This document shows, piece after piece, positions 10,172 through 43,905 of a stretch of 44,793 bases of DNA. The number at the start of each line of letters is the position of its first letter. Positions within the stretch are counted from its first letter, which is position 1. The DNA is from a phage. Under the pieces are notes generated by a model. That model was not told where the DNA came from. It saw only the letters and a list, made by a program, of their open reading frames with translations, and ran no database searches. A program made the translations under genes and the position numbers. Where the stretch lies: sequence record PZ445535.1. One strand, given 5' to 3'.

Positions 10172-10534
10172 ATGGCTAAACAATCCCTGTTCACCCTCGA
10201 CCCAAAACCGACCTTCAAGCTGCCGATTGAAATCCCGCGTCCGGGTGAGAAAGAGCCGGGTAAGCTGACTTTCACAGTCCGCCACCGCCCGATCGACGAG
10301 TTTTCGCAGACCATGCAGGAGACTGAGCGCAAGCTATCAGAATATGACCAGAATGACCCGGATGGCTTTAACGTTATGGTCGAGGCCATCATGCACGTCG
10401 CTGAAGGCTGGAATCTGCCGGATGAGTTCACCGAAGAGAACGTCCGCCGCCTGGTGGTGAACTACCCGCGTGCGTTCGGCGTGTTCCATACGTCGTACTA
10501 TCTAGAATTGATGGGCTTGCGTGAAAAAAACTAA
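10172..10534 (+). CDS. tail assembly chaperone (G-like, unshifted product)
   Basis: 120 aa ending ...LREKN; acidic; immediately upstream of tape measure region; slippery heptamer at its 3' end. Confidence 0.75.
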   Translation: MAKQSLFTLDPKPTFKLPIEIPRPGEKEPGKLTFTVRHRPIDEFSQTMQETERKLSEYDQNDPDGFNVMVEAIMHVAEGWNLPDEFTEENVRRLVVNYPRAFGVFHTSYYLELMGLREKN

Positions 10535-10848
10535 TTGCGGCGGCGCGACGATTTTATGGTCCGCCGCCACCGTCCGAAGACCTTGCCGCTAGTTTATGGG
10601 GTGCGGCCCCCGAAGATATTTGCCCGCCAGTTGCATTATGGCCTGATAACGTCCAGGTCGTTGCCGTTTTCACGGACTGCTCGACGCAGTGGCGCACCGG
10701 TTTTAATGGTGCATACGGCATCGACTATGGCGTACTGGAATGGTTGTTTAAAATGCACGGCATCGAAAACGAGAAGCGCGCTTTTAAAGATATTAAGCTA
10801 ATGGAGCGTATCGCACTCGACGAAATCGCAGCACAACAGGCCGGGTAA
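10172..10848 (+). CDS. tail assembly chaperone frameshift fusion (GT-like), programmed -1 frameshift at 10525-10531
   Basis: A_AAA_AAC heptamer in zero frame 5 codons before the stop; -1 frame stays open to TAA at 10846-10848 and encodes ...KKLIAAARRFYGPPPPSEDLAASLWGAAPEDICPPVALWPDNVQVVAVF...; intrinsic terminator follows. Confidence 0.7.
10525..10531 (+). other. -1 programmed ribosomal frameshift slippery heptamer A_AAA_AAC
   Basis: Heptamer in zero frame of chaperone gene; -1 frame open for 105 further codons. Confidence 0.7.
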
Positions 10849-10862
10849 TTCCGGCCTTTTTC
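10839..10862 (+). terminator. intrinsic terminator after chaperone frameshift ORF
   Basis: GGCCGG-GTAATT-CCGGCC hairpin followed by TTTTT; overlaps stop codon of -1 frame product. Confidence 0.6.
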
Positions 10863-11190
10863 GTATCGGGACAAGCGGGACGTCCCGTTTTTGTCCCACC
10901 CATCCCGCCACACCGAAAACTGCATACCTATTCAGAAATACTGCATAAAACCAAAACGGGACAAAAACGGGACAAGCGGGACGTCCCGCCTCAAAAGTGC
11001 ATACCTATGCAATTTTCGTGCATAAAACAAACGGGACAAAAACGGGACAGATTCCGCGCGGGACAAAGCGGGACGTCCCGCCGTCCCAGTCAGTGCTGCC
11101 GCGGGTTTCAGCCGTTCGGGACAAGCGGGACAAAGCCCAGTCTTTCAGACTAGACGGGGGTCAATGGCCCCCCTCGTCTGAGACTGAATA
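10863..11190. repeat. iteron-rich element A (about 11 CGGGACA heptamers, three GGGACGTCCC palindromes, two ~78-bp tandem units, terminal G/C-rich inverted repeat)
   Basis: Non-coding 400-bp gap inside tail operon; heptamer CGGGACA at 10867, 10957, 10968, 11032, 11043, 11059, 11117, 11126 etc.; inverted repeat CAGTCTTTCAGACTAGACGGGGG...CCCCCCTCGTCTGAGACTG at 11138-11186. Confidence 0.8.
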
Positions 11191-11256
11191 AGGTTGGTTG
11201 CAAAATGACTGATACAATACAAACGGCAACTTGCATAAAAAGGGGGGGACTGCATA

Positions 11257-13899
11257 ATGGCAGATCAAGCCGCAGGCATTACGCTAAAGGCGGACGTGTC
11301 GCAAATTAAATCGGCGAACAATGCGCTAGACCAAATGGCGCAAAAATCCGATAACACCGAAAAGAAAGTTAAGAAGCTAAACGACACCCTCGGCAACAAT
11401 AAGAAGGAGTCGTCCGGCGCTGCGGATGGAATGGGTAAGTTTGCACAGCAGACTGAACGAGCCGCAGATGGCATGACCAAACAGGAACGTTTGGCAAACC
11501 GGTTAGGCATGTCAACCAAAAACCTCGGCTTCGCATCACGCAACGCTGCATTCCAGCTTCAGGACATTGCCGTAACGCTTGAGATGGGTATGCCAGTGCA
11601 CCGTGTCATGCTTCAGCAGTTACCGCAGCTTACCGGTGCGTTTGGCGGTATGGCTAACACCTTGCGTTATGTTGCAGGCGTACTCGGTCCAGTAGGGATC
11701 GGCCTCGCGGCATTAACGGCAACGCTTGGCGTAGGTGTGGCTATGACCACGCGTGCCGATAACCAGGTTGCGGCGCTAAACAAGACGCTCACTCTTTCAG
11801 GTAACATTTCCGGCCTGACAGCTAACCGTATCCTGGAGCTTGCCGAGAACGCCGAGCGCATGGGAGGGACGTTCCGCAAGACTAAGGACACCATTCAGGC
11901 GCTGGCAGCGGCGGGTGTGCGCGCAGGGTCTGACTTCGGCGCACTTGCTAAGGTCGTTAATGATTTCGCCAGTGTATCAAGCGAGCCAATCGAAGACGTC
12001 GTTTCGGCGGTAGCCAAACTGTCAACGGACCCTGTAGGCGGCTTGCGCGCATTGGCGGACCAGTACCATGTCGTTACGGAAGCGCAGATCCAGCAGGTGC
12101 AATCGCTCATGGACGCGGGTAAAGAGACTGAAGCAGTTGCGGCGGCTAACAAGATCGCAACCGCATCATTCTCGGATATGACCACCGAGCTTAAAGCGAA
12201 CATGGGTACGCTTGAGCGCTCAATGAAAACGGTCACATCAGCAGCGAAGTCTATGTGGGATGCTATTCTGGATATTGGTCGGGCACAGTCGTCTAACGAA
12301 GCTGAGATGGAAGCCCGCGAGAAATTGCAGCGACTGACCACCGCCTACTACGTTGAGCAGAAAGCGGTTGCTGAGGCTGGCGGCAAGATGACCGAGGCAC
12401 AGAAGGCCCGGATCGATATGCTGTATAGCGAGATGGTAGCCCAGGAGAAGGTAGTTGCCTCCGCCACGCTGGCTAACCGCCAGAAGCGCGAAGAAGCACA
12501 GACCGCCGAGCAATCGGCTAAAGCACGGCAGCAGGAAAACCAGGCGGCCCGTGAACTGGCGGAGCTTGATGCTAAATACGCCACCAACGCCGAGAAGCGT
12601 GCGAAAGAACTGGCGAAGGTAGACCGCTTGCTGAAGTCCGGCACGATTTCGCAGGAGCGCCACGCCGAGCTTGTCGAGCAGATTAACAAGATGTACAAAG
12701 ACCCGGCACCGAAGAAGGCCGCTGCCGTTCGGGTAGACTCCGGCCTGAAAATGCTTGAGATCGCAAAGAGCGAACTGGCGCAACTTCGCGAGGCTGGAAA
12801 GTTAATCACCGCCAATGCTTCAAACCAGACACGCACACAGCGCGCACAAGCGGCCCTGAGCAAGCTAATTGCCGATAATGAGCAGTTAGTCGCTGCGAGC
12901 AAGTCCAGAGCGCTGACGGCAGCGGAGAAGCAGCAATTAGCCGAGTTTGAGAACGTACGCGCGGTGCGAGAGCAAATCGTCGCGGAAGCGAAGCGCCAGG
13001 ATGAGGTCGAGAAGTCCGTAAAAGCGCACGCGCAGATCGACGCCTACCTGAAGAATCAGGACGCCGAACTGAAAGCCATTACGGCAGGCTACGCCTTATC
13101 GACCCGCGAAGCGTCTAACCTGCGGGAAGAGATGCAGCTAATTGACAGACTGAAGCGCGTCGGTGCTTCCGACACAGATATTGACCGTGCTGTTTCAAAG
13201 CTGCGCGAAGTGCAGGAGGCGCAAACCGGCGCTAACGCGTCGTTGTGGGATGGCTTCAGCCGCGGCCTGAAAGATAGCGTGGATGACCTGGGTAACGGAT
13301 ATACGCAGATGGTATCCGCGACAAAATTCACGTTCGGCGCTATGATGGATACGATGAACGAGTTTTTCGAGACTGGTAAATTCAACGCGAGGGATATGAT
13401 TAAATCCATCCTGAGCGAATTTATCAAGCTGGCTACCTCGCAAGCGTTTAAGTCCGTTGTTACCGCGTTCGGCGGTGGTGGAAAAGACGGACTGTTTGGG
13501 GCGATCTTCTCCGGCCTCACTAAGAACGCCGACGGCGGAGCGTACTCCGGCGGCAACCTTTCCGCGTATTCCGGGCAAGTGGTGAGCCAGCCTACCTTTT
13601 TCAATTACGGCGTTAAGGCGTTCGCTAAGGGCGCAGGATTGATGGGCGAGGCCGGGCCAGAGGCCATCATGCCACTGAAGCGCGGGCCGGACGGTAAGCT
13701 GGGCGTTGCCGCAAGTGGCGCGGGCGGAGGCGGCATCGTTGTGACCACTAACGTCAACATGGGTACGGGGCAGGCCGACACCAGCGTTAAAGGTACCGAC
13801 CCACGAATGGGCCAGGTATTTGGCAAGCAGATCACGGAAGCGGTTAAAGCCGAAATCGTGAAAGCAACTAAACCAGGTGGTGTACTTTATAAACGATGA
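11257..13899 (+). CDS. tape measure protein
   Basis: 880 aa; long alpha-helical Ala/Gln/Lys-rich sequence; Gly-rich C-terminal region; RBS AGGGGGGG; followed by M/L/K/I/J-like genes. Confidence 0.9.
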   Translation: MADQAAGITLKADVSQIKSANNALDQMAQKSDNTEKKVKKLNDTLGNNKKESSGAADGMGKFAQQTERAADGMTKQERLANRLGMSTKNLGFASRNAAFQLQDIAVTLEMGMPVHRVMLQQLPQLTGAFGGMANTLRYVAGVLGPVGIGLAALTATLGVGVAMTTRADNQVAALNKTLTLSGNISGLTANRILELAENAERMGGTFRKTKDTIQALAAAGVRAGSDFGALAKVVNDFASVSSEPIEDVVSAVAKLSTDPVGGLRALADQYHVVTEAQIQQVQSLMDAGKETEAVAAANKIATASFSDMTTELKANMGTLERSMKTVTSAAKSMWDAILDIGRAQSSNEAEMEAREKLQRLTTAYYVEQKAVAEAGGKMTEAQKARIDMLYSEMVAQEKVVASATLANRQKREEAQTAEQSAKARQQENQAARELAELDAKYATNAEKRAKELAKVDRLLKSGTISQERHAELVEQINKMYKDPAPKKAAAVRVDSGLKMLEIAKSELAQLREAGKLITANASNQTRTQRAQAALSKLIADNEQLVAASKSRALTAAEKQQLAEFENVRAVREQIVAEAKRQDEVEKSVKAHAQIDAYLKNQDAELKAITAGYALSTREASNLREEMQLIDRLKRVGASDTDIDRAVSKLREVQEAQTGANASLWDGFSRGLKDSVDDLGNGYTQMVSATKFTFGAMMDTMNEFFETGKFNARDMIKSILSEFIKLATSQAFKSVVTAFGGGGKDGLFGAIFSGLTKNADGGAYSGGNLSAYSGQVVSQPTFFNYGVKAFAKGAGLMGEAGPEAIMPLKRGPDGKLGVAASGAGGGGIVVTTNVNMGTGQADTSVKGTDPRMGQVFGKQITEAVKAEIVKATKPGGVLYKR

Positions 13900-32422: not shown

Positions 32423-33193
32423 TTAACGGCGGCGACGTTTACGTGGCGCTTCGTCGTCGTCCTCATCTTCGTCATCGCGTGGTTTACGACGTTTGCGAGG
32501 TTTTTCGTCTTCGTCTTCGTCGTCGTCATCGCGGCGCTTGGACTTTTTGGACTTACGCGGCTTGTCGTCATCGTCATCACGACGTTTTGACTTTTTGGAC
32601 TTACGCGGGCTTTCATCTTCGTCATCGTCGCCCAGGTCTTCGTCGGAACATGAAGACCCGCCACCGCCGAAGGCTTCGCCGTCATCACGGAAGCGCATAC
32701 CCAGCAGACCACAGCCTAAGCCTTTGCCGTTGGTATTGTTCCAGGCCCAAATATCTAAGGAAACGTTGCAATAGCAACCGGAATAGATTTCCTTCCCTTC
32801 GATTTCGTCGCCGTCGATGGTCAGACCCTGCTCCGTCTGCTTCTCGCCTTCGGAAGTCTGGATGATCGGCTGTTTGAATGATTTGGCATTGATGTACAGC
32901 TTTCCTTCAAACTCTTCCGTCACTTCTTCACGCTCGTCACCATCACGAACTGCACATTCTTTCGAATCCTGTGCGTAGTGGCGGTCCATCCACTTATCGG
33001 CGTTCTTTTCAGACTTCAGCTTTTCGGTGAGCACTGCGCGTGCCGCCGCTTCCACTTTGTCCACCTGCGGATCTTCTTTATCAAGAATAATCACCGCACG
33101 AAATGCCGGTTTTTGTCCATCCTGTTTAGGGGTATCACGCTCCCAAATTTTCAGGAAGCATACACGTACATTTTTCAGGTTGACTTTAGCCAT
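32423..33193 (-). CDS. ssDNA-binding-like protein with charged repeat tail
   Basis: 256 aa from ATG 33193 (MAKVNLKNVRVCF...); RBS GAGGAA 7 nt upstream; C-terminus built from 16-aa DDDDDKPRKSKKSKRR repeats; SSB assignment is from N-terminal pattern and context only. Confidence 0.45.
   Translation of the reverse strand: MAKVNLKNVRVCFLKIWERDTPKQDGQKPAFRAVIILDKEDPQVDKVEAAARAVLTEKLKSEKNADKWMDRHYAQDSKECAVRDGDEREEVTEEFEGKLYINAKSFKQPIIQTSEGEKQTEQGLTIDGDEIEGKEIYSGCYCNVSLDIWAWNNTNGKGLGCGLLGMRFRDDGEAFGGGGSSCSDEDLGDDDEDESPRKSKKSKRRDDDDDKPRKSKKSKRRDDDDEDEDEKPRKRRKPRDDEDEDDDEAPRKRRRR
32537..32609 (-). repeat. 48-bp tandem repeat in SSB-like gene tail
   Basis: GACTTTTTGGACTTACGCGG at 32541-32560 and 32589-32608 (forward strand); encodes two DDDDDKPRKSKKSKRR units. 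Confidence 0.7.
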
Positions 33194-33257
33194 TTTCCAA
33201 TTCCTCAATTTGCATGTATCGGGGTTATTAGAAGCCACCCCGTCCGGCTTGGTTGCT

Positions 33258-33286
33258 AATTTACTTGGTTGCGTTTCCGCGGTCAA
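33258..33286 (-). promoter_or_regulatory. candidate promoter for SSB-like gene (TTGACC-N17-TAAATT)
   Basis: Minus strand: TTGACCgcggaaacgcaaccaagTAAATT; motif copies CGCAACCAAG / AGCAACCAAG. Confidence 0.35.
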
Positions 33287-33289
33287 GCA

Positions 33290-33523
33290 TTATTTATCAA
33301 AAAGTTTTAAAATCAGGTCGAGATATTTGTGCAGCCACACCAGCGGCGGGCGGTGCACGTTGTTCTCCATCCAGTTCAAACAGGCTTCGTTGTAGCCGTC
33401 GTCCCATAGGCGGGATGGGTGGCGAATCATCCAGGCCAGCGCCGGCAGACCGCCGCAGGTATGTACTACGAATCCCAGTACCGCCAACGGCAGCACCATA
33501 ATCATTGCCAGAATCTTATTCAT
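33290..33523 (-). CDS. small membrane protein
   Basis: 77 aa; hydrophobic N-terminus MNKILAMIMVLPLAVLGFVV; RBS GAGGA 8 nt upstream. Confidence 0.4.
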   Translation of the reverse strand: MNKILAMIMVLPLAVLGFVVHTCGGLPALAWMIRHPSRLWDDGYNEACLNWMENNVHRPPLVWLHKYLDLILKLFDK

Positions 33524-34946
33524 CGTTTAAATCCTCGTCGCTTGCTTCTTGCCATTCCGGGCGCGGGTCGTCAACTGGTGCCAGGACTGGTTTCGCAGGT
33601 GCACGCGTGATTTTATCTTGCAGCTTCGCCCACACTTTCGGTTTCTCATCCTTCAGCACCTTCTCCGCGTCGGTCGGACTGATTAATGATTCCTTGTACA
33701 TCAGGTCGCGCTTGATCCGGGCCGTGGAGAATACGGCGATGACCTCGCTTTCATCCTTCCACTTACGCGCACCTTCACGACCAGCTACCAGCTTCAGGCC
33801 CAGCGCTTCGCCATCACCGGCTAACACAGCTTTGAATACGGCAGCCTCGATCGCTTTGATGTGCTGGCGCATGGTTTCCAGACCGTCGTAAGCCTTTTTC
33901 AATTCTTCCGTGGTCATTGCACCGGCCGGCGCTTCTTTCTCGCCACGCTTCGCACGTCGGGCCGCTTTCCGGGCTTCGCGGGCCATGTTCCGGTCGTGGT
34001 TTTTGCATTCTTCCTCGGTGGCAATGCTTACATCGTCGCCCAGGTCTTCGTCGGTTGCCGTTGGTGGCGTCATTGTGTCGATGGCGGCTTTAGCGCGGGC
34101 GCTACATTGATCCGCAAATCGACACCACTGACACGCATCGGCGCTCGGACGGAAGTCTGCACGGGTGAGATTCTTCTTACCCTTAGCGAAGGCATCCAGG
34201 GCGGCTACTGCGCGTTTTGCTGCGTACTTGGCGAAGATTTCCAGTGCTTCCACCGAAATATCCCACTCCGACGCCCCGCCGCAATACGGCTGGAATATGA
34301 CCAGGCGCACGGTTGTTATGTCGTACATCTTTTGCAGCTTGCGCAGCAGTCCGAGCGCATACAGCATAAGCTGTTTGTTCTCTTTCGCCTCGACCTTATG
34401 GCGTCCGGTCTTCAGGTCGCCAACAATCAGCATGTACGTGCCGTCGGTCTTCTTCATGACCATAACCATATCGGCAGTACCGAAGGTTTTAATCACCTCG
34501 CCGTCAATCTCGTAGCCTTTGTGCAGGACGCGTGTCAGATCCGCGCGCATCTCAAGCTGCACAAACTCGGCAACTTCAAGCAGCGGTCGCCAGTGGTCGA
34601 TGTACGCGTCGCACTGTTTCACCATGTCGTCAGTTACCAGGATGGCGTCCTTAGGTGCTTTCGCTGCTGCTTTAACTGGGCCTTTACCCTGATTTTCGAC
34701 GTAACACCCTTTATAGGTCTTCGCCGTTATATGGTCTTCACCCGCGATAATGCGGTTTAGCACCACTTCAGATACGGTGTGCATACTCGTACCATTGATC
34801 GCGGCTTGCCCGGATTCGTTCGGAATACCTTTCTCCACCACCAGGGCGGCAGGACACCCCATCCATTTTTTAGCGCCGGATGGGCCGAGTAATGAGTGTT
34901 CTGTGTTACTGCCGGATTGCGTCTTGCGCTTCGCTTTGATAGCCAT
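33516..34946 (-). CDS. PD-(D/E)xK exonuclease, Cas4/RecB-like, with Cys cluster
   Basis: 476 aa; nuclease motifs ADMVMV...LIVGDLKTGRHK and QLMLYALG; four-Cys cluster C...CQWCRFADQC (Fe-S type); RBS GAGGG. Confidence 0.7.
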   Translation of the reverse strand: MAIKAKRKTQSGSNTEHSLLGPSGAKKWMGCPAALVVEKGIPNESGQAAINGTSMHTVSEVVLNRIIAGEDHITAKTYKGCYVENQGKGPVKAAAKAPKDAILVTDDMVKQCDAYIDHWRPLLEVAEFVQLEMRADLTRVLHKGYEIDGEVIKTFGTADMVMVMKKTDGTYMLIVGDLKTGRHKVEAKENKQLMLYALGLLRKLQKMYDITTVRLVIFQPYCGGASEWDISVEALEIFAKYAAKRAVAALDAFAKGKKNLTRADFRPSADACQWCRFADQCSARAKAAIDTMTPPTATDEDLGDDVSIATEEECKNHDRNMAREARKAARRAKRGEKEAPAGAMTTEELKKAYDGLETMRQHIKAIEAAVFKAVLAGDGEALGLKLVAGREGARKWKDESEVIAVFSTARIKRDLMYKESLISPTDAEKVLKDEKPKVWAKLQDKITRAPAKPVLAPVDDPRPEWQEASDEDLNDE

Positions 34947-36313: not shown

Positions 36314-36643
36314 ATGAATATCAACGAAGCAATTGAAGTGTTATCTAATGCAATCCGCGGCGAGTCTGGTAAATCCTGGTATTACACAAATGCGGTGGAT
36401 ACTCTGTTATTTGAAGTGTCCAGATTATCGCGTGCCGAGAAAGAGCTTACCGCCAAACTTGAATTGCTGAACGGTACGGCAGCGAGCAAGCTGCAAAAGC
36501 ATAACGAAGAAATGGAAGAATACAAAAAGCAGGTTATCAGACTGCGCGAAGAGGGTAAGTCCTGGGCGATGATTGCCGAGTTAACAGGCATTAACCAGAG
36601 CACGGTGCGATCCTGGGTACGCAATACTAAAACCGCTAAGTAA
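36314..36643 (+). CDS. helix-turn-helix DNA-binding protein (putative regulator)
   Basis: 109 aa; C-terminal HTH-like SWAMIAELTGINQSTVRSWV; RBS AGGAGG; first gene of divergent plus-strand operon. Confidence 0.55.
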   Translation: MNINEAIEVLSNAIRGESGKSWYYTNAVDTLLFEVSRLSRAEKELTAKLELLNGTAASKLQKHNEEMEEYKKQVIRLREEGKSWAMIAELTGINQSTVRSWVRNTKTAK

Positions 36644-36652
36644 GGGATTGAG

Positions 36653-38920
36653 ATGATGAGAAATATAGAATTTGCGATCACACCTCCCGCAAAGAAAGGT
36701 GAATCAGCGGTAGCCCATAACCAATCCATGACTACCGCCGAGTTTTTCGAGTTTATGCTGGATGCGCCGGTGGTGTCGTCAGTTTGCATTAACGGCACTG
36801 AAGATAAGAAAGAATACGCCCGTCGTAAGCGTAAAGGCGACGGTATTGTGGCGACCACCGCCGACGGTACGCGTAAGAAGACCGGCGTTGTTGACCGTTC
36901 GATCCTGTTCTTTGACCTGGACCGCGCCGACAACCGCACACTTACCCGCTGCCGTAGGGCTTTTCGCAAGTCCGGGCTGGAGTATGTCTATCACACCACC
37001 ACCGGCGACCGCCACCCGTTGAAAGACGGCAAACGTTGCGCCCGTTTCCTTGTGCTGACAAACAAACCAGTTCCGGCTGAAGACCTGGGCCGCGCGCAGG
37101 CTGCACTGCTCGAACAACTGGGCCTTACAGACGCGGGCTTTGATGACTGTTCGAAAGACACAAACCGTCTTATGTACTTGCCACACCAGCAGGCTAAGGT
37201 CGAATGCCATGAAGGTAAACGCGCTAACGTGCGTCGTCTGCTTCGCCGGGCTGACCGGATGGGTATTGAGCAGGAGACGTTTCGCCGTGAACTGGCGCAG
37301 GGCGACGACGAGCAGATGAACGGAATCCTCGACTGGTGTTTCCAGGCTGGCTTTGAGCCGTTGCCATCCGGGCGCGGTTATGAAGTGCCGTGCCCGAACG
37401 AACATCTGCACTCTGGCGAAGGGTCAACCGCTATCATGCTTAAGGATGGCGAGATCCGTTTCAAATGTATGCACACCGGCAACGGTTGCTGTTCGGAACT
37501 GAACAAACACCAGCACCTGGCGCTACGCATGATTGGCATCCCGGATATTTATAACGTGGAACCGCACAACATGTCACGCAAACAGATCTCGGCTATCCTG
37601 CCAGGTCTGGACGATGAAGAAGTGGACGCGCAGTATGAGCACATGGTCGATCTGGTAGGTGAGGGTGAGGATTATGCTTCCTGTACCGACGCAGACCTGG
37701 AAGACGAACCGACGGCGCTGTTCTCTAAGCACGACCCGATCATCGAAGGTCTGATTAACTTCAAATCGACCTGGTACGCAGCGGGCGAGTCGAACATTGG
37801 TAAGTCCTTCTTTGTCCTGGGTCAGATGGCTGCCGTTGCCGCTGGCATTCCGTTCGGCGGCGCGAAGGTCGTCCAGTCACATTGCTTCTATTTCGATGCG
37901 GAAGGTGGCGAGGCGTCACACCAGCGTAAAGAGGCACTGCAGATTAAATATGAGCACGACCTGGATAAGCTGCACATTATCGACCTTCAGGCCCGCGGCT
38001 GGGATATTACGAGCAAATCCGGCCTGCGTGAAGTCATCAGCTTTATCAACCGCACCGCGGATGGTGAACCGGTCGGCCTGGTGGCATTCGACTCCCTTAA
38101 CCAGACAGTGGCCCTGCGATCTGCTGACGCCAAACCGTTCGATGAGAACAACGCAAGCGATATGGGTGAGATTGTCAAAGCGCTGAAGGCCATTGCGGAA
38201 AACACAGGCGGCAGTGCGGGCGTCATCCACCACCCGGCTAAGGGTGCAAACGGCAGCAGATCCCCGCGGGGGTCCGGTGCGCTACATGGCGCGGTGGATT
38301 CTGCATTCTTCCTGGAACAGCCAGACGAGAATCAGCCGGGCCAGCTAAACCTGTACCACGAAAAAGCACGTAACGGCGTCAAACAGGGTCCGCGCGGCTT
38401 CGTGCTACTGAAGTGCAAAGTATCCATTAACGAGCGCAAGTCTGACTCGTTCGAAGCGCACCAGTCCACTAACCCCGGACCGGACTTCGGCGATGTAGTT
38501 GCCGGATGGGACGTCAAGCCAATCCAGGCCACGCCGCGCGACGAGACTCTGTACCTCGTACCGGTAGCGCTGACCCCGTTCGCTATTGAACAGGCTAAGG
38601 CGGCAGGCAAGCAGGCTGTTAAGGATGAGAACACCGCAGGCCCGCGCAATGAAAAAGAGAAAGTGCTGTACGCAGCGCTCGAAGCGTTGATGGAAGAGAA
38701 TCCGGGCCACCACGGCTTCAGCAAATCGGCAATCGTCCGCAAAGCTGGGCTGGCGAAAGGCGGCACTTCGACGAAGCCAATCGACGATATGCGCGAGCGC
38801 GGAATCATCGGCTTTTACAAAGACCCGGACACCGGGGCCATTTACGGGTCGTCGAATCTGGTTATCAATTCACAAATATCTATGCAATTGACGGCGACGG
38901 ACGACGACCTTAAAGATTAA
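36653..38920 (+). CDS. DNA primase-helicase (AEP-like N-terminal domain, zinc motif, RecA-fold ATPase)
   Basis: 755 aa; N-terminal FFDLDRAD / HTTTGDRHPL acidic motifs; Cys/His cluster CPNEHLH...CMHTGNGCC; Walker A AGESNIGKS and Walker B LVAFDSL. Confidence 0.65.
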   Translation: MMRNIEFAITPPAKKGESAVAHNQSMTTAEFFEFMLDAPVVSSVCINGTEDKKEYARRKRKGDGIVATTADGTRKKTGVVDRSILFFDLDRADNRTLTRCRRAFRKSGLEYVYHTTTGDRHPLKDGKRCARFLVLTNKPVPAEDLGRAQAALLEQLGLTDAGFDDCSKDTNRLMYLPHQQAKVECHEGKRANVRRLLRRADRMGIEQETFRRELAQGDDEQMNGILDWCFQAGFEPLPSGRGYEVPCPNEHLHSGEGSTAIMLKDGEIRFKCMHTGNGCCSELNKHQHLALRMIGIPDIYNVEPHNMSRKQISAILPGLDDEEVDAQYEHMVDLVGEGEDYASCTDADLEDEPTALFSKHDPIIEGLINFKSTWYAAGESNIGKSFFVLGQMAAVAAGIPFGGAKVVQSHCFYFDAEGGEASHQRKEALQIKYEHDLDKLHIIDLQARGWDITSKSGLREVISFINRTADGEPVGLVAFDSLNQTVALRSADAKPFDENNASDMGEIVKALKAIAENTGGSAGVIHHPAKGANGSRSPRGSGALHGAVDSAFFLEQPDENQPGQLNLYHEKARNGVKQGPRGFVLLKCKVSINERKSDSFEAHQSTNPGPDFGDVVAGWDVKPIQATPRDETLYLVPVALTPFAIEQAKAAGKQAVKDENTAGPRNEKEKVLYAALEALMEENPGHHGFSKSAIVRKAGLAKGGTSTKPIDDMRERGIIGFYKDPDTGAIYGSSNLVINSQISMQLTATDDDLKD

Positions 38921-39030
38921 AATTTGCGCGCATTGGTTGCCGATATGGGAATTCCCATATCGCTAAAAGATTAAATTCTGCGCGCATTGGTTGCCAGATT
39001 GAGCATTAAATCTATATCGCATTGGTTGCC
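38912..39030. repeat. three direct repeats containing GCGCATTGGTTGCC plus perfect 22-bp palindrome
   Basis: 30-bp repeats at 38912-38941 and 38966-38995 (54-bp period), partial third at 39018-39030; palindrome CGATATGGGAATTCCCATATCG at 38941-38962. Confidence 0.75.
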
Positions 39031-39068
39031 GTGTAGTGCTAAATAAGTGAATAGTTATGCAAAATAAG

Positions 39069-39240
39069 TGCATAAAACAAACGGGACAAAAACGGGACAA
39101 ACTACAAGCGGGACAAAACGGGACGTCCCGCCGTCCCCGTCAGGCGTGGTGCGGATTTGAGGCGAACGGGACAAGCGGGACAGACCACAGTCTTTCAGAC
39201 TAGACGGGGGGTATTGTCCCCCCTCCGTCTGAGACTGCAT
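39069..39240. repeat. iteron-rich element B (second copy of element A core)
   Basis: 32-mer GTGCATAAAACAAACGGGACAAAAACGGGACA identical to 11018-11049; GGGACGTCCCGCCGTCCC; CGGGACAAGCGGGACA; G6/C6 inverted repeat at 39188-39237. Confidence 0.8.
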
Positions 39241-39396
39241 AAAATCTCTGGTTGCATAATCAACGGCAGCATAGTGAAAATTGCGGCGGGGGTAGATCTC
39301 GGCAACCAATGCATGTTGGATAATGGAGAGTGAAAAATGCAGTTTGCAATTGCAACTCATAGCGATCAGCATTTCCATGCGCGTGATTGATATTGG

Positions 39397-39425
39397 TTGC
39401 ATTCAGCCTGGCACCTTGCTATATT
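39397..39425 (+). promoter_or_regulatory. sigma70-like promoter (TTGCAT-N17-TATATT) for early genes at 39454+
   Basis: attggTTGCATtcagcctggcaccttgcTATATTggttgcacaccaac; shares a 20-nt block with the promoter at 5248-5276. Confidence 0.5.
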
Positions 39426-42236: not shown

Positions 42237-42644
42237 ATGTTAAAAAGTATTCTTGATCATAATGCGGACGCGCTCGATGCGTTGTCTAAAACGGAAGACG
42301 CTGGCGCGCGTCGAATCATTGCAGACACCATCAGCCATGCCGGAGTGTTTGGTGCAAGCCTTCCGGGACCGAAGCCGGATGTGAAGGTGACAAGCGCCAC
42401 AGTAACGGTAACACCAGAGGCAGTTACAATCGGCACCCAGTCTAAGGCTATGGTGGCGGTGCAACCGGCAGGGGCGACCGATAAATCCGGCGTGTGGATT
42501 AGTGGGTCGCCAACCATCGCCACCGTTGACGCTTCGGGTAATATCGACGGCAAAACGCCCGGTTCTGTCGATATTATTTGGGTGGCTAAGGATGGAAGCG
42601 GGGTGTCGGGCCGAAAAACGGTAACTGTGGCAAACGCCGAGTAA
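42237..42644 (+). CDS. bacterial Ig-like (Big_2-type) domain protein
   Basis: 135 aa; C-terminal VTVTPEAVTIGTQSKA...GSVDIIWVAKDGSGVSGRKTVTV beta-sandwich-like pattern; RBS AAGGGGGAG; terminator downstream. Confidence 0.45.
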   Translation: MLKSILDHNADALDALSKTEDAGARRIIADTISHAGVFGASLPGPKPDVKVTSATVTVTPEAVTIGTQSKAMVAVQPAGATDKSGVWISGSPTIATVDASGNIDGKTPGSVDIIWVAKDGSGVSGRKTVTVANAE

Positions 42645-42649
42645 AGAGC

Positions 42650-42677
42650 AAGCCCGCAACTATGGCGGGCTTTTTAT
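42650..42677 (+). terminator. intrinsic terminator after lysis cassette / Ig-like gene
   Basis: GCCCGC-AACTATG-GCGGGC hairpin followed by TTTTT. Confidence 0.7.
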
Positions 42678-42680
42678 TGC

Positions 42681-42710
42681 TTGACTTGCAACCAATTAAT
42701 ATCTCATACT
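42681..42710 (+). promoter_or_regulatory. candidate promoter (TTGACT-N18-CATACT) with TGCAACCAAT motif
   Basis: TTGACTtgcaaccaattaatatctCATACT directly after terminator; upstream of HTH-phosphoesterase gene. Confidence 0.3.
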
Positions 42711-42762
42711 TCTGTCGCCGTGGTATATTGATCGCGGTCAAACTGAATCAGGAAAATATACG

Positions 42763-43905
42763 ATGCACCCTCAAACCAAAATTACAGACGAGCAGTTGAT
42801 CGCCGAAATCCAGGCGGGAACGACCGCGAAAGATATTGCTAAGAAATACGGGATTGCACTGCGCAATGTTTATATGCGCAAAGCACGCTTATCTAAAAAG
42901 GGAATCGGTCACGGTAATGATGCCGTAATTCGTAAGCGGGTTGCCGATGGCTTCGGCGTGAAGCGTGTCTCCGCCCTGGTGCGTGGCAATGGCGAAGAGG
43001 TCATGTCATGGGTTATCACAGAACAGGACAAAGAGCGACAGCTTGAGGCGATGCGCGCAGTGCTGGACGGCATGAACAGCGAAATCACACCGGCAGCACC
43101 AGTAAGCGCCCCGCCAGTACCGATCCAGGCGCTTGACCTGCTCAACCTGTACACCGTGTCTGACTTCCACCTGGGAATGCTGGCATGGGGCGAGGAGACT
43201 GGCGAAGACTGGGATATGGCGATTGCCGAAGACCTGTTCTACCGCTGGTTTGTCGAAGCCTTCGCACGCGCACCGGACGCAGGCACTGCCGTAATTAATA
43301 TCCTCGGTGATATGGCGCACTTTGACAGTCTCGATGCCGTTACTCCCGCCAGTGGTCACATCCTTGACGCCGACACCCGCTACCAGAAGCTGGTCCGCTA
43401 CATGATTCGCATGGTGCGCAATGTGGTGGAACTGGCACTACAGAAGCACCACAAAGTCAAACTGCTAATTGTGCAGGGCAACCATGACGAAAGCGGAATG
43501 ATCTGGCTGGCGGAGATGTTCGCTACGCTGTACGAGAACGAGCCGCGCGTTGAGGTAGACACGTCGCCAGATGTCTATAAGATGGTCCAGCACGGTAAGA
43601 CTACGCTGTTCTTCCACCACGGGCACAAGGCTAAATTTGACGCTATCGAGCCGGTCATGATTTCGAAATTTCGTGAGGCGTTCGGGTCCAGCCAGTACAG
43701 CTATGCGCACGTAGGCCACCTGCACCACCAGAAGATTGTCGAATCGCGCAACATGATTGTTGAACAGCACCGAACGCTTGCCGCGAAGGACGCCTACGCC
43801 AGCCGAGGCGGTTGGATGAGCGGACGCAGTGCAAACGTGATAACCTATAGCGCGAACTACGGTGAAGTAGCACGCTTAACCATTAGCCCGGAAATGTTGA
43901 AATGA
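42763..43905 (+). CDS. HTH domain - metallophosphoesterase fusion protein
   Basis: 380 aa; N-terminal HTH-like TAKDIAKKYGIALRNVYMRKARL; calcineurin-like motifs SDFHLG (DxH), ILGDMAHFD (GDxxD), QGNHDE (GNHD/E), HHGH, GHLHH. Confidence 0.6.
   Translation: MHPQTKITDEQLIAEIQAGTTAKDIAKKYGIALRNVYMRKARLSKKGIGHGNDAVIRKRVADGFGVKRVSALVRGNGEEVMSWVITEQDKERQLEAMRAVLDGMNSEITPAAPVSAPPVPIQALDLLNLYTVSDFHLGMLAWGEETGEDWDMAIAEDLFYRWFVEAFARAPDAGTAVINILGDMAHFDSLDAVTPASGHILDADTRYQKLVRYMIRMVRNVVELALQKHHKVKLLIVQGNHDESGMIWLAEMFATLYENEPRVEVDTSPDVYKMVQHGKTTLFFHHGHKAKFDAIEPVMISKFREAFGSSQYSYAHVGHLHHQKIVESRNMIVEQHRTLAAKDAYASRGGWMSGRSANVITYSANYGEVARLTISPEMLK

Follow-up and report, generated by a model that had tools for sequence, protein, structure and literature searches.

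The repeat-filled gap in the tail operon

The DNA analysed here, called the window below, is a stretch of 44,793 nucleotides from a phage of the genus Dhillonvirus (PZ445535.1). Within its tail operon the chaperone-frame ORF ends at 10848 and the ATG of the tape measure gene lies at 11257, leaving a non-coding gap of 408 bp (10849-11256). This agrees with the approximately 400 bp reported in the first-pass annotation of this DNA, which also remarked, fairly, that lambda-like tail operons normally have no such element here. Small ORFs annotated in the gap by some records are unlikely to be real, since the indels found between the repeats among relatives are of 1 nt and other non-triplet lengths. 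We refer to the gap as region A and to a second copy of the element, described below, as region B; the features of both are collected in Table 1.

Table 1. Positions of the features of regions A and B and of the gene preceding region B
Feature	Position	Strand	Remarks
Intrinsic terminator after the tail chaperone genes	10838..10857	+	8-bp stem then UUUUU; -14.8 kcal/mol, z = -3.2
Repeat cluster 1: CGGGACA, CGGGAC|GTCCCG palindrome, T-run, inverted TGTCCC	10867..10907	+	
AT-rich box unit 1: TGCATA ... TGCATAAAAC	10916..10954	+	direct-repeat family D2
Repeat cluster 2: two CGGGACA 11 bp apart, then CGGGACGTCCCG	10957..10988	+	
AT-rich box unit 2: TGCATA-CC-TATGCA palindrome (10998-11011) and GTGCATAAAAC	10993..11031	+	
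Repeat cluster 3: two direct CGGGACA, then CGGGACA, CGGGAC|GTCCCG and a further GTCCC	11032..11086	+	
A-type spacer CAGTGCTGCCGCGGGTTTCAGCCGTT	11087..11116	+	near-invariant among region A copies; unlike the B-type spacer
Distal direct CGGGACA pair, 9 bp apart	11117..11132	+	
Imperfect G/C-rich hairpin (stem-loop cluster), 49 nt	11138..11186	+	stems invariant, loop variable within the genus
TTGGTTGC promoter/operator-type motif 3' of the hairpin	11194..11201	+	
Extended -10 promoter element TGATACAAT (candidate)	11210..11218	+	read directly from the sequence
755-aa primase-helicase gene	36653..38920	+	AEP primase, Cys/His zinc motif, AAA_25 (RepA/DnaB-like) helicase, C-terminal winged helix, acidic tail
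Three tandem AT-rich units, each with GCGCATTGGTTGCC	38925..39040	+	TTGGTTGC at 38933, 38987 and 39022
Region B AT-rich box segment: GTGAATAGTTATGCA (39047-39061), GTGCATAAAAC (39068-39078)	39040..39080	+	abuts the first repeat
Region B repeat cluster: CGGGACA at 39082, 39093 and 39109; CGGGAC|GTCCCG at 39120-39129; a further GTCCC	39082..39136	+	
Region B distal CGGGACA pair	39167..39182	+	
Region B hairpin	39188..39237	+	invariant stems the same as at 11138-11186; -14.7 kcal/mol, z = -4.3
Sigma-70-like promoter TTGCAT-17-TATATT, overlapped by two TTGGTTGC (candidate)	39397..39425	+	read from the sequence

The dominant repeat is CGGGACA, with 8 exact copies within 10867-11132; the whole window holds 14, against 5.9 +/- 2.4 expected, a number reached in none of 100 shuffles. 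When CGGGAC is counted on both strands there are 14 occurrences in the region A gap, 7 in region B and 17 in the remaining 44 kb or so, which makes the earlier estimate of about 11 copies of CGGGACA a fair one. The shorter core GGGAC clusters solely at regions A and B, and 17 of the 64 GGGAC/GTCCC occurrences in the window fall in the gap. The perfect 10-bp palindrome GGGACGTCCC is present three times as first described (10877, 10978 and 11070; 0.04 expected), and the two tandem units, given as approximately 78 bp, are approximately 76 bp long with a spacing of 75-77 bp (repeat families D2 and D3). A replicon-specific cluster of short repeats, far above chance, is what an iteron-type origin would contain.

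Between the repeat clusters lie AT-rich boxes with an AT content of 67%, against a genome mean of 46%. The second of these begins a core module of approximately 200 bp that is common to regions A and B, and its GCATAAA core is unchanged in all 28 aligned A and B modules. Repeat cluster 3 is arranged direct-direct-inverted-inverted, is cruciform-capable and folds at -18.7 kcal/mol; the same arrangement recurs in other lineages with their own repeat units. Repeat cluster 1 also has the form of a terminator-like hairpin (RNA fold -19.3 kcal/mol), and the equivalent palindrome and T-run are annotated as a terminator in the record of phage HK578.

The terminator mentioned in the first-pass annotation is present after the tail chaperone genes, with an 8-bp stem and a T-run, and marks the upstream transcriptional boundary of region A; it was found only in the sub-lineage of the window (the window, L008 and Ioannina). 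At the other end of the gap, TACAAT (11213-11218), earlier proposed as a promoter candidate with a weak -35, does have a poor -35 but is actually part of an extended -10 element, TGATACAAT, which is invariant in the 16 complete region A sequences aligned. A strict -35/-10 scan did not report it; as a candidate, it would provide the tape measure gene and the distal tail genes with an internal promoter. Sigma-54 promoters were considered and rejected because the GG-to-GC spacing is wrong, as were CRP and IHF sites because the matches are poor.

The imperfect inverted repeat that the first-pass annotation gave at 11138-11186 folds as DNA at -13.4 kcal/mol (z = -2.9). It is not an intrinsic terminator, because it lacks a U-run: it is followed by GAATAAGG in region A and its counterpart by GCATAAAA in region B, and a terminator scan was silent here.

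A second copy and its counterparts in other lineages

The element was first noted only once. Its position there was correct, but a second copy, region B, was missed; this lies at approximately 39040-39260, is 85% identical to region A over approximately 200 bp, shares TGGTTGCA with it and directly follows the gene for the 755-aa primase-helicase. Of the two copies, region B is thus the one that lies beside an initiator/helicase gene, as do its counterparts in eight other lineages. The AT-rich segment abutting the first repeat of region B reaches 80% AT over 30 bp, the peak of the region, and is a candidate unwinding element and/or host-factor site; at 80% and 67% AT, respectively, regions B and A both have the AT-rich neighbour of an iteron origin in base composition. 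The GCGCATTGGTTGCC units that precede this segment vary from 1 to 3 copies among genomes and are predicted to be accessory promoter/operator units. The promoter-like sequence at 39397-39425, which the strict scan did not report, would drive the operon after region B.

Far from being a recent, unconserved insertion, as the first-pass annotation had allowed it might be, the element is present at this position in 159 of the 159 Dhillonvirus records found and has a counterpart in the phage eiAU, of a different genus. Both regions were already annotated as related repeats in the GenBank record of Sodalis phage SO-1 (2009). The exact 23-mer core of the hairpin is found in 13 Dhillonvirus contigs, two copies to a genome, and is absent from every other kind of viral contig. 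Regions A and B are 73% identical within one genome and 71% identical between different genomes, and in the aligned modules repeats and stems are constant, whereas each type (A or B) has its own spacers. Because copies from the same genome are hardly more alike, and because the repeats and stems do not vary, this indicates that the pair is an old duplication held by selection rather than maintained by gene conversion. A scan of E. coli genomes and plasmids found no module and no evidence of its capture by satellites or plasmids.

Repeat-rich non-coding regions directly 3' of the helicase-primase stop codon are found in eight further lineages (L037, AH01, L046, L047, TS33, L049, FSL SP-031 and eiAU), which comprise one uncultured Dhillonvirus-like relative, Eiauvirus eiAU and six members of the Guernseyvirinae or similar phages. 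The order of parts, AT-rich boxes followed by direct and inverted short repeats and then a G/C stem-loop cluster, is closely kept in 6 of the 8; TS33 is a looser match and region B of eiAU is organised differently. A GAATAGTTATGCA box recurs in L047, L046, L049, AH01 and FSL SP-031, has diverged in TS33 and is missing from Tsm2 and eiAU. Viral contigs scanned for AGGGATAAAGGGATA gave mostly chance matches in AT-rich contigs. The related lineages L040-L045 have no array downstream of the primase-helicase gene.

The repeat unit itself is lineage-specific: CGGGACA (also in L037, a relative at 68% identity), CGGACAA, TCCGACA (L046), AGGGATA, AGGGAT/AGGGAGA, GGGGATG, GGGGAGA and CGCCCC (eiAU). Repeats are spaced 7 to 15 bp apart between lineages, with no fixed helical phase. 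A scan anchored on the tape measure protein did not recover the L037 contig but showed that eiAU, too, has a tail-operon site at the same position as region A; CGCCCC is found at both of its sites, which share a 52-bp core that is 88% identical, just as GGGACA is found at both sites in Dhillonvirus. Since both sites of a genome use the same unit, one lineage-specific factor would therefore read both. Repeat specificity appears to have switched at least seven times across Dhillonvirus, Eiauvirus and the Guernseyvirinae, at both sites where two exist.

The stem-loops are likewise retained. In all 7 lineages tested the fold comprises a first stem-loop (SL1), a G/C-rich SL2 and, in most cases, an SL3, or else takes a nested form; z lies between -2.1 and -4.3. 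SL1 covaries: five distinct stems give 24 of 25 Watson-Crick pairs, which none of 20,000 shuffles matched, the count being made on a register set by hand and biased to that extent. This demonstrates selection for base pairing in SL1. The covariation, together with the placement of both copies on the transcribed strand, the folding of the repeat clusters as nested hairpins (-18.7 to -19.3 kcal/mol) and the GGA in the plus-strand repeats of 7 of 9 lineages, would suit a structured RNA acting in cis or in trans, such as a 3'-UTR or leader, a put-like antitermination RNA or a GGA protein sponge. We consider this quite improbable. The pairing is equally expected of single-stranded DNA initiation signals, the zero-loop perfect palindromes GGGACGTCCC and the mixed orientation of the repeats better fit double-stranded protein sites, the units of L046 and eiAU lack GGA, the lineage of the window terminates transcription just before region A, and the hairpin is not itself a terminator. 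Rfam 15 gave no matches in the window at gathering thresholds, and permissive scans of both regions yielded just chance matches to hairpins, all below threshold. A CsrA-sponge RNA was rejected, as it fails in L046 and eiAU.

Typical features of pac/cos accessory sites and of centromeres likewise include short repeated motifs and palindromes, and the conserved boxes of FSL SP-031 form two 18-bp palindromes 3 bp apart that may resemble tandem ARG boxes. A role in packaging, recombination or partition, whether as terminase-bound repeats, a cer-like accessory site based on the ARG-box-like boxes or centromere-like sites, is nevertheless very improbable. There are two copies, both far from terS and terL (the window begins at terL and ends with terS), and in relatives the element follows the helicase gene. 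These are virulent phages in which no recombinase or partition genes were recognised, and recombination between two direct copies would delete 28 kb. The packaging site offered by the first-pass annotation is accordingly unsupported.

The helicase core of the 755-aa protein matches Pfam AAA_25 (E = 4.5e-21), and its sole PDB sequence match is a weak one to RSF1010 RepA (1g8y, E = 0.5). An AF2 model of the N-terminal part (pLDDT 86) matched, in Foldseek, the S-2L PrimPol (E = 1.6e-4) and RSF1010 RepB' bound to ssiA DNA (3h25_A; E = 9.9e-4, probability 0.99). The C-terminal winged helix is modelled at pLDDT ~90 and matches generic winged helices only, the best at E = 0.04. Helix 3 of the winged helix starts with GGT.T in 3 of 3 CGGGACA lineages and differently in each lineage with another repeat; L047 and L046 have winged-helix blocks that are 68% identical and repeats that are quite different. 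Phylogeny confounds this comparison, and the link between winged helix and repeat is only suggestive. When the repeat reader was sought as the most diverged neighbour between L047 and L046, all neighbours turned out to have diverged further than the helicase has. No separate initiator or loader, RepC-like or other, was recognised among the proteins scanned with Pfam or PHROGs. On these domain assignments and models, the 755-aa protein is a candidate origin-binding and priming protein.

A replication-origin reading and a regulatory alternative

The repeat gap is most likely a replication-origin-type site, one of two, rather than a gene switch. Specifically, we propose, with a probability of roughly 0.55, that region B is an iteron-plus-hairpin origin and that region A is a second origin or an initiator-binding site, as in the oriL/oriR pair of SPP1. 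The reading is credible because the second copy adjoins the primase-helicase gene. Of the three roles named in the first-pass annotation it favours the second replication origin. The literature searched contained no discussion of these regions, no transcript or origin maps and no described replication origin for Dhillonvirus or the Guernseyvirinae, and no experiment on initiation or protein binding for these phages.

Each copy would consist of AT-rich boxes, initiator-binding iterons of 5-7 bp in both orientations (CGGGACA here) and a stem-loop cluster. A phage replication protein would bind the repeats, most probably the 755-aa primase-helicase, which would use its C-terminal winged helix for this and so resemble P4 alpha, pRN1 ORF904 or SV40 T antigen. 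The RepA-like helicase could then assemble on the inverted pairs and open the adjoining AT-rich segment, and the exposed stem-loops could serve as single-strand initiation signals for the RepB'-like AEP primase, on the same principle as at RSF1010 oriV. Region B, beside the gene, would be the ancestral primary origin and region A an old duplicate retained in the tail operon, where it would be a second origin or else, bound by the initiator, would stall forks and promote the switch to concatemer synthesis, the role put forward for SPP1 oriR. The terminator or terminators at the start of region A and the extended -10 promoter at its end may insulate it from, and then restart, transcription of the tail operon.

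GC and AT skew have their minimum at approximately 36 kb and their maximum at approximately 23 kb and point to neither site; they mirror the direction of transcription and for this reason are uninformative about origins. DnaA boxes were set aside, since the matches reach no more than 7-8 of 9 positions and are variable at the key C. Several observations count against an origin: the variable spacing of the repeats, the missing arrays in L040-L045, the generic winged-helix match with its only suggestive link to the repeat, and the lack of a RepC-like initiator and of capture by plasmids or E. coli chromosomal elements.

The other way to read the element is as transcriptional control, in which the repeats would bind a phage regulator, be it an activator, a repressor or an insulator. 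This would set the timing of the operon that follows each copy: lysis, packaging and head genes in the case of region B, the tape measure gene and distal tail genes in that of region A. Each copy runs in the direction of transcription and is followed, 25-160 bp downstream, by a promoter-like element (TGATACAAT for region A, TTGCAT-17-TATATT for region B), an arrangement that a regulatory element would share and that counts against an origin; region A is bracketed by terminator(s) and promoter, TTGGTTGC operator-type motifs are embedded in both regions, and lineage-specific repeats imply a phage-encoded reader. We judge this reading unlikely all the same. Other late genes have no preceding array. 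No activator gene is recognisable, and the supposed 380-aa regulator, an HTH binder in the first-pass annotation (42763-43905), is a Mre11/SbcD-type exonuclease (phrog_704, E = 2.5e-161). In L047 and L046 the module is followed by near-consensus sigma-70 promoters (TTGACT-17-TATTAT and TTGACA-17-TATTGT, respectively), which should need no activation. The 7-14 sites in both orientations, with variable spacing and covarying stem-loops, are atypical for activator sites, and across three taxa the element tracks the primase-helicase gene and not one particular downstream gene. Together these points weaken the late-activator array suggested at first.

To return to the origin reading, it has a bolder form, which is possible though rather doubtful. 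Here the 755-aa protein would be a bacterial-virus counterpart of SV40 T antigen and papillomavirus E1, one polypeptide that finds, melts and primes its own origin, and the tail-operon copy would be a programmed initiator-bound roadblock or replication-coupled switch and not a redundant origin. The winged helix would read the 5-7-bp sites in direct and inverted pairs, the RepA-like helicase would melt the DNA and the AEP primase would prime on the adjoining covarying stem-loops, while the tail-operon copy would convert theta to concatemer synthesis and tie expression of the tape measure and distal tail genes to replication. If this form is right, the group is a natural series for the evolution of origin specificity.

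Dhillonviruses and the Jersey-like Guernseyvirinae are among the most often isolated phages of E. coli and Salmonella, and their use in therapy and biocontrol has been widely proposed. If regions A and B are origins, they are a cis element needed to engineer, reboot or minimise these genomes, and belong to a compact primase-helicase-binder system akin to those of P4 alpha and pRN1 ORF904, although its catalytic parts are of the IncQ type. These would be a second case of siphophages, after SPP1, keeping an origin copy within the virion-assembly genes, and the proposed fork-stalling switch to concatemer synthesis would become testable in E. coli. Related phages with differing repeats and matched proteins would also open up the evolution of origin specificity and replicon incompatibility in co-infection. 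If the element is regulatory instead, it is an unusual multi-site control region common to the start of the lysis/packaging operon and the middle of the tail operon.

Comparison with known replicons

The closest parallel in layout is SPP1, a virulent siphophage of approximately 44 kb. According to two sources (PMC6316719, PMC3485210), it has two similarly organised sites, oriL and oriR, of direct repeats with AT-rich DNA, recognised by one origin-binding protein; one site lies at the replication genes and the other in a long intergenic region that interrupts the order of virion-assembly genes. The second site is proposed to stall forks and trigger a theta-to-sigma switch (PMC6316719, PMC3485210), and oriR is a precedent for an origin copy that interrupts virion-assembly genes (PMC6316719). 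It is bracketed by transcription signals, with inserted moron genes nearby; the eiAU gap likewise carries a reverse-strand gene. Dhillonvirus and eiAU both have such a pair, two distant sites that share one repeat unit within the genome, one at the replication genes and one in a virion-gene gap.

In SPP1, however, the initiator (gp38), the loader (gp39) and the DnaB-type helicase (gp40) are distinct proteins and the primase comes from the host, whereas one fused protein is the only recognisable candidate here; oriL, moreover, is situated within gene 38, and region B 3' of its gene. There is no sequence similarity, no homology to the gp38, gp39 or gp40 replication proteins was found, and the text consulted describes no stem-loop cluster at the SPP1 origins. 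The resemblance is one of design, not descent.

In oriV of the IncQ plasmid RSF1010, iterons adjoin the ssiA and ssiB hairpins, which are read by an AEP-type primase after opening by RepA (PMC8567376). The phage primase domain matches the RepB'-ssiA structure 3h25, and the helicase is of the AAA_25/RepA type. RSF1010, however, divides these functions among three separate proteins, including the iteron-binding RepC, of which no homologue was seen in the phage; its iterons are 20-bp direct repeats, whereas the phage cores are of 5-7 bp and in both orientations; and its two 40-nt signals, ssiA and ssiB, are on opposite strands, in contrast to the single cluster of two or three stem-loops in each phage module. 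The IncQ combination of RepC with two opposite-strand ssi hairpins is thus not found here.

The protein of pRN1, ORF904, joins three domains in one chain in the order found in the 755-aa protein, with an AEP primase at the N-terminus, a helicase in the middle and a winged helix at the C-terminus, and a structure-conserved, sequence-variable stem-loop origin lies just 3' of its own gene (PMC4234260). The authors of that work noted similar stem-loops in bacteriophages (PMC4234260). ORF904 differs in having a superfamily 3 helicase, where the phage helicase is RepA/DnaB-like AAA_25, and the pRN1 stem-loop is approximately 100 nt long and explicitly without iterons, where in the phages iterons dominate and the stem-loops are short.

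The satellite phage P4 needs a second cis site, crr, with the same repeats, several kb away from its origin. Its alpha protein is a primase-helicase whose C-terminal winged helix binds the origin repeats (cited in PMC4234260). Alpha differs from the 755-aa protein in its Toprim primase and SF3 helicase, and P4 has no stem-loop cluster.

Lambda has a separate initiator, O, an origin within the O gene and no stem-loop cluster. Its iterons are nevertheless like those described here, being imperfect inverted repeats with G-tracts that adjoin an AT-rich tract; their number varies among relatives, and transcription nearby is required (PMC7466680).

Repeat arrays in the tail operon and behind the primase-helicase gene

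The window comprises all or nearly all of the genome of a Dhillonvirus, a siphophage of the HK578/SO-1 type; 5 kb of sequence around the feature, used as a query, matched 159 phage records at 60-90% identity, nearly all of them Escherichia phages of this genus. The gap described between the chaperone and tape measure genes (region A) is real, spans 408 bp and holds the array proposed by the first-pass annotation: 8 exact copies of CGGGACA (14 CGGGAC sites on both strands), three copies of the GGGACGTCCC palindrome against 0.04 expected, two tandem units of ~76 bp each, and an imperfect inverted repeat that folds as a 49-nt hairpin (-13.4 kcal/mol as DNA, z = -2.9). In the whole window CGGGACA occurs 14 times against 5.9 +/- 2.4 expected, a count reached in 0/100 shuffles. 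The terminator reported before the gap is canonical, and the reported TACAAT is present; what had been called a promoter candidate with a weak -35 is an extended -10, TGATACAAT, which is invariant at the end of region A. Because the gaps of relatives vary by non-triplet indels between the repeats, the gap is non-coding, and small ORFs annotated there in some records are probably not real genes. The terminator is found only in the window's sub-lineage (the window, IMG/VR contig 3300045988_003101 and phage Ioannina); in other Dhillonviruses these ~13 nt are missing, leaving only the first GGGACGTCCC palindrome with its T-run, which the HK578 record annotates as a terminator.

Although confirmed, the original observation was incomplete, as a twin copy had been missed. 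The motifs of the gap are seen again behind the 755-aa primase-helicase ORF (region B), where alignment showed a ~200-bp module of region A to be repeated at 85% identity, starting ~120 bp past the stop codon of this ORF. The module consists, in order, of AT-rich boxes (GTGAATAGTTATGCA or TGCATA-CC-TATGCA, then GTGCATAAAAC); a CGGGACA pair in direct orientation, 11 bp apart; a group of two direct and then two inverted repeats centred on the junction of GGGAC and GTCCC; a spacer of ~30 nt; two further direct repeats; a hairpin; and ATAA followed at some distance by TGGTTGCA. Within region B, AT content over 30 bp peaks at 80% (genome mean 46%) in the box segment that abuts the first repeat, and the region A equivalents of this segment are 67% AT. 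GC skew of the window tracks transcription only and gives no origin signal. The GenBank record of Sodalis phage SO-1 (2009) already annotates a 'region A' and a 'region B' as mutually similar repeats, with a note that breaks off after 'possible ...', so the raw observation is not new. The literature searched, including full-text term searches, yielded no paper analysing these regions; absent from it are the architecture shared across genera, the lineage-specific switching of the repeat at one site or both, the covariation of the stem-loops and the IncQ-like domain composition of the neighbouring protein.

Features of the window discussed in the text
Feature	Position (strand)	Remarks
Tail assembly chaperone gene	10172-10531	Pfam Phage_TAC_4; upstream side of gap
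Terminator	10838-10857	before region A
AT-rich boxes, region A	10998-11029	upstream of repeats
GCTGCCG / CGGCAGC pair	11087-11100 vs 39262-39272	equivalent positions in relatives L046, L049, L159 (FSL SP-031), L161
Imperfect inverted repeat	11138-11186	
TACAAT	11213-11218	
Tape measure gene	ATG at 11257	880 aa; downstream side of gap
gp2.5-like gene	32423-33283 (-)	286 aa
48-bp tandem repeat	32516-32627	
PD-(D/E)XK nuclease gene	33516-34943	
HTH gene	36314-36640	109 aa
Primase-helicase gene	36653-38920 (+)	755 aa
AT-rich boxes, region B	39047-39078	upstream of repeats
Gap motifs, region B	39082-39182	
Exonuclease-family gene	42763-43905	380 aa
TTGGTTGC, paired examples	5242/5256 (-), 21372/21389 (-), 24562/24574 (+), 26473/26490 (-), 33249/33265 (+)	
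TTGGTTGC, further examples	36116, 38933/38987/39022, 39393/39424, 42688	

Conservation and repeat units across lineages

Region A was aligned over 17 loci, and the A and B modules over 13 genomes and one more distant relative. The repeats, the GCATAAA box core and both hairpin arms are invariant in the aligned modules, and the hairpin loop varies freely. Many genomes have GGGACAG-GGGTG-CTGTCCC or its inverse in place of the GGGACGTCCC palindrome, the half-sites being kept while their arrangement shifts. The spacer is conserved among A types and among B types and differs between the two. Identity is 87% A-to-A, 83% B-to-B, 71% A-to-B and 73% A-to-B in the same genome; together with the invariance, these values indicate a duplication of long standing that selection has maintained, and not continual gene conversion. 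In IMG/VR the exact 23-nt hairpin core is confined to 13 Dhillonvirus contigs, with two copies in each genome; the module was not found in E. coli chromosomes or in the plasmids searched. Phage records (MG065648.1, GQ502199.1 and others) that bear the labels Campylobacter phage A144, an Acinetobacter phage and Sodalis phage SO-1 share ~79% identity with Dhillonviruses of coliphage type over 5 kb; some of these host labels look doubtful.

The C-terminal half of the 755-aa protein served as the anchor for recovering more distant relatives, and whole or partial genomes of FSL SP-031, Tsm2, TS33, AH01 and eiAU were added. Most lineages have a common order of parts directly 3' of the helicase-primase stop codon: a pair of TGAATAGTTATGCA-type boxes and a pair of direct repeats; a single repeat with two inverted copies; a spacer of ~30 nt and another direct pair; the small stem-loop SL1, then SL2 with its G-run/C-run stem and, usually, a further stem-loop, SL3; TTATTCA with CACGGCA(G/A)C; and a promoter such as TTGACA-17-TATTGT. 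TS33 fits this order loosely, its boxes having diverged, and region B of eiAU is built differently, with a long inverted repeat and many TTGGTTGC sites. The gap after the Tsm2 helicase gene has TTCCGCACA repeats and no comparable array, and relatives L040-L045 have no array at all downstream of the helicase-primase gene.

The repeat unit is CGGGACA in Dhillonvirus and its uncultured relative L037, CGGACAA in Pantoea phage AH01, AGGGAT or AGGGAGA in Hafnia phage TS33, GGGGAGA in Salmonella phage FSL SP-031, CGCCCC in Edwardsiella phage eiAU, and TCCGACA, AGGGATA and GGGGATG/A in relatives L046, L047 and L049. FSL SP-031 and Tsm2, the two Guernseyvirinae with whole genomes examined, have only the post-helicase copy, and their tape measure gene directly follows the chaperone genes. 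In eiAU, which belongs to a different genus (helicase 47% and tape measure 39% identical), a second region immediately upstream of the tape measure gene carries five CGCCCC repeats and a hairpin resembling the Dhillonvirus one, and shares a 52-bp core, 88% identical, with eiAU's own region B. Because the units match at both sites within a genome and differ between lineages, a single lineage-specific, phage-encoded factor would read both sites; this repeat matching is the strongest evidence for such a factor.

Stem-loops, the neighbouring protein and a probable origin

The 7/7 lineages tested fold into SL1, SL2 and usually SL3 in a row, or into a nested form in which the SL1 5' arm pairs with the SL3 3' arm (z -2.1 to -4.3). 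SL1 is constant in position and in the style of its loop (TTC, TATC, TAAC, TGAC, TTAGA), and its stems compensate fully: AGTCT/AGACT, TCCTC/GAGGA, TCATC/GATGA, TCTCC/GGAGA and GCTCC/GGAGA. With the register set by hand, which biases the count, 24/25 pairs are Watson-Crick, every pair position changes type, and 0/20,000 column shuffles match this. The base pairing is thus under selection, whether in single-stranded DNA or in RNA. A terminator role for the hairpin was ruled out, as no U-run follows it. A structured RNA would account for the covariation; we consider it improbable, since zero-loop palindromes and mixed repeat orientation fit it poorly, GGA-less lineages exist, and regions A and B have no match in Rfam.

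In the 755-aa protein, Pfam finds only AAA_25 (residues 356-532), the helicase core, and the sole match among PDB sequences is the RSF1010 RepA helicase, a weak one (E = 0.5). An AlphaFold model of the N-terminal 345 residues, built from 21 homologues (pLDDT 86), has two AEP domains among its matches, that of S-2L PrimPol from a cyanophage (E = 1.6e-4) and that of RSF1010 RepB' on ssiA initiator DNA (3h25, E = 9.9e-4). A Cys/His zinc motif follows the AEP domain. The C-terminal ~100 residues are confidently modelled as a winged helix (pLDDT ~90) with generic matches to ORC, MarR-family and histone H1 winged helices (best E = 0.04), followed by an acidic tail. This domain is the most divergent between lineages (18-34% identity vs 75-85% in the helicase core) and most aberrant in eiAU; its helix 3 starts with GGT.T in 3/3 CGGGACA lineages and differently in each other-repeat lineage. 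This helix 3 pattern, which is confounded by phylogeny, is consistent with the winged helix reading the repeats. No separate initiator was recognisable among the proteins scanned.

We favour regions A and B as replication-origin-type elements, at a probability of roughly 0.55, on a combination of features: a place beside the replicative primase-helicase gene in three taxa (that of region B), lineage-specific short repeats in direct and inverted pairs, an adjoining AT-rich segment, covarying stem-loops, and a neighbouring protein that joins a primase like RepB' to a helicase like RepA and a winged helix. This is what one expects of an origin served by an all-in-one initiator-helicase-primase: the initiator would bind the repeats, unwinding would follow, and priming would occur on the stem-loops. 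The first-pass interpretation is partly supported: of the three roles it proposed, a replication origin is the best reading. A transcriptional control array is unlikely: the module is co-oriented with transcription and has promoters adjacent, but other late genes have no arrays, no activator gene is recognisable, the downstream promoters of relatives are near-consensus, and stem-loops lie inside the module. A packaging, recombination or partition site, with essentially no support from position, is very improbable, and possibilities beyond these readings carry a small share of the probability.

Every component of the origin-type combination has an experimentally characterised precedent. In RSF1010, iterons are bound by RepC, and the ssiA/ssiB hairpins are then primed by RepB' after RepA unwinding (PMC8567376). 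The pRN1 stem-loop origin lies just 3' of an AEP-helicase-WH gene, with structure conserved and sequence not, and similar stem-loops have been noted in phages (PMC4234260); P4 alpha binds repeats through a C-terminal winged helix, as cited in PMC4234260. The lambda origin combines G-tract iterons with an AT-rich tract and is activated by transcription (PMC7466680). For the tail-operon copy, the closest analogue is SPP1 oriR, which is organised like oriL and bound by the same protein, occupies a long intergenic region breaking virion-assembly gene order with transcription signals on either side, and has been proposed to stall forks and so switch replication to the concatemeric mode (PMC6316719, PMC3485210). 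Region A is flanked in a similar way, with terminator(s) where it starts and TGATACAAT where it ends. The eiAU gap before the tape measure gene holds a reverse-strand hypothetical gene (L271, the eiAU sequence, 42365-42718), which recalls the insertion of moron genes beside SPP1 oriR.

Accompanying motifs and genes

AT-rich boxes upstream of the repeats also occur in L047, L046, L049, AH01 and FSL SP-031, and are absent from Tsm2 and eiAU. In FSL SP-031 (L159 13781-13820) they are two 18-bp palindromes exactly 3 bp apart, TGTGAATAGTTATGCAGA-AAA-AGTGAATAGTTATTCGGG, which match the DnaA-box consensus at 8/9 positions and which we take to resemble tandem E. coli ARG boxes; these likenesses hint at a host-factor site. 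The spacer that precedes the final two repeats carries GCTGCCG, within the window only in region A. This motif is the reverse complement of the CGGCAGC/CGGCAAC after the stem-loops, and the two form a conserved inverted pair around the distal repeats and hairpins in several lineages.

The window contains 22 copies of TTGGTTGC against ~1.4 expected for an 8-mer, many of them paired 12-17 bp apart and overlapping sigma-70-like promoters (TTGCAa-17-TATATT); TTGGTTGC looks like a genome-wide promoter/operator motif. In eiAU there are 23 copies, of which the two gaps hold 13, and the Guernseyvirinae have an analogous ATGTTGGCTG. The 109-aa protein encoded upstream of the primase-helicase is a sigma-70-region-4-like HTH whose gene has a TTGGTTGC site upstream, making it the obvious candidate reader.

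The 380-aa product, taken for an HTH protein in the first-pass annotation and labelled a transcriptional regulator or HTH protein in the SO-1 record too, instead has its match in a family of DNA repair exonucleases (phrog_704, E = 2.5e-161), with weak matches to calcineurin-like phosphoesterase domains; by homology it is Mre11/SbcD-like and no regulator. Together with the PD-(D/E)XK nuclease and the 286-aa product, a single-strand DNA-binding and annealing protein like T7 gp2.5 (phrog_112), it gives the phage the recombination kit that recombination-dependent replication restart requires. A minus-strand replication-module gene contains a 48-bp tandem repeat (2.3 copies, 83% matches) adjoined by TTCGTC/TCG microrepeats.
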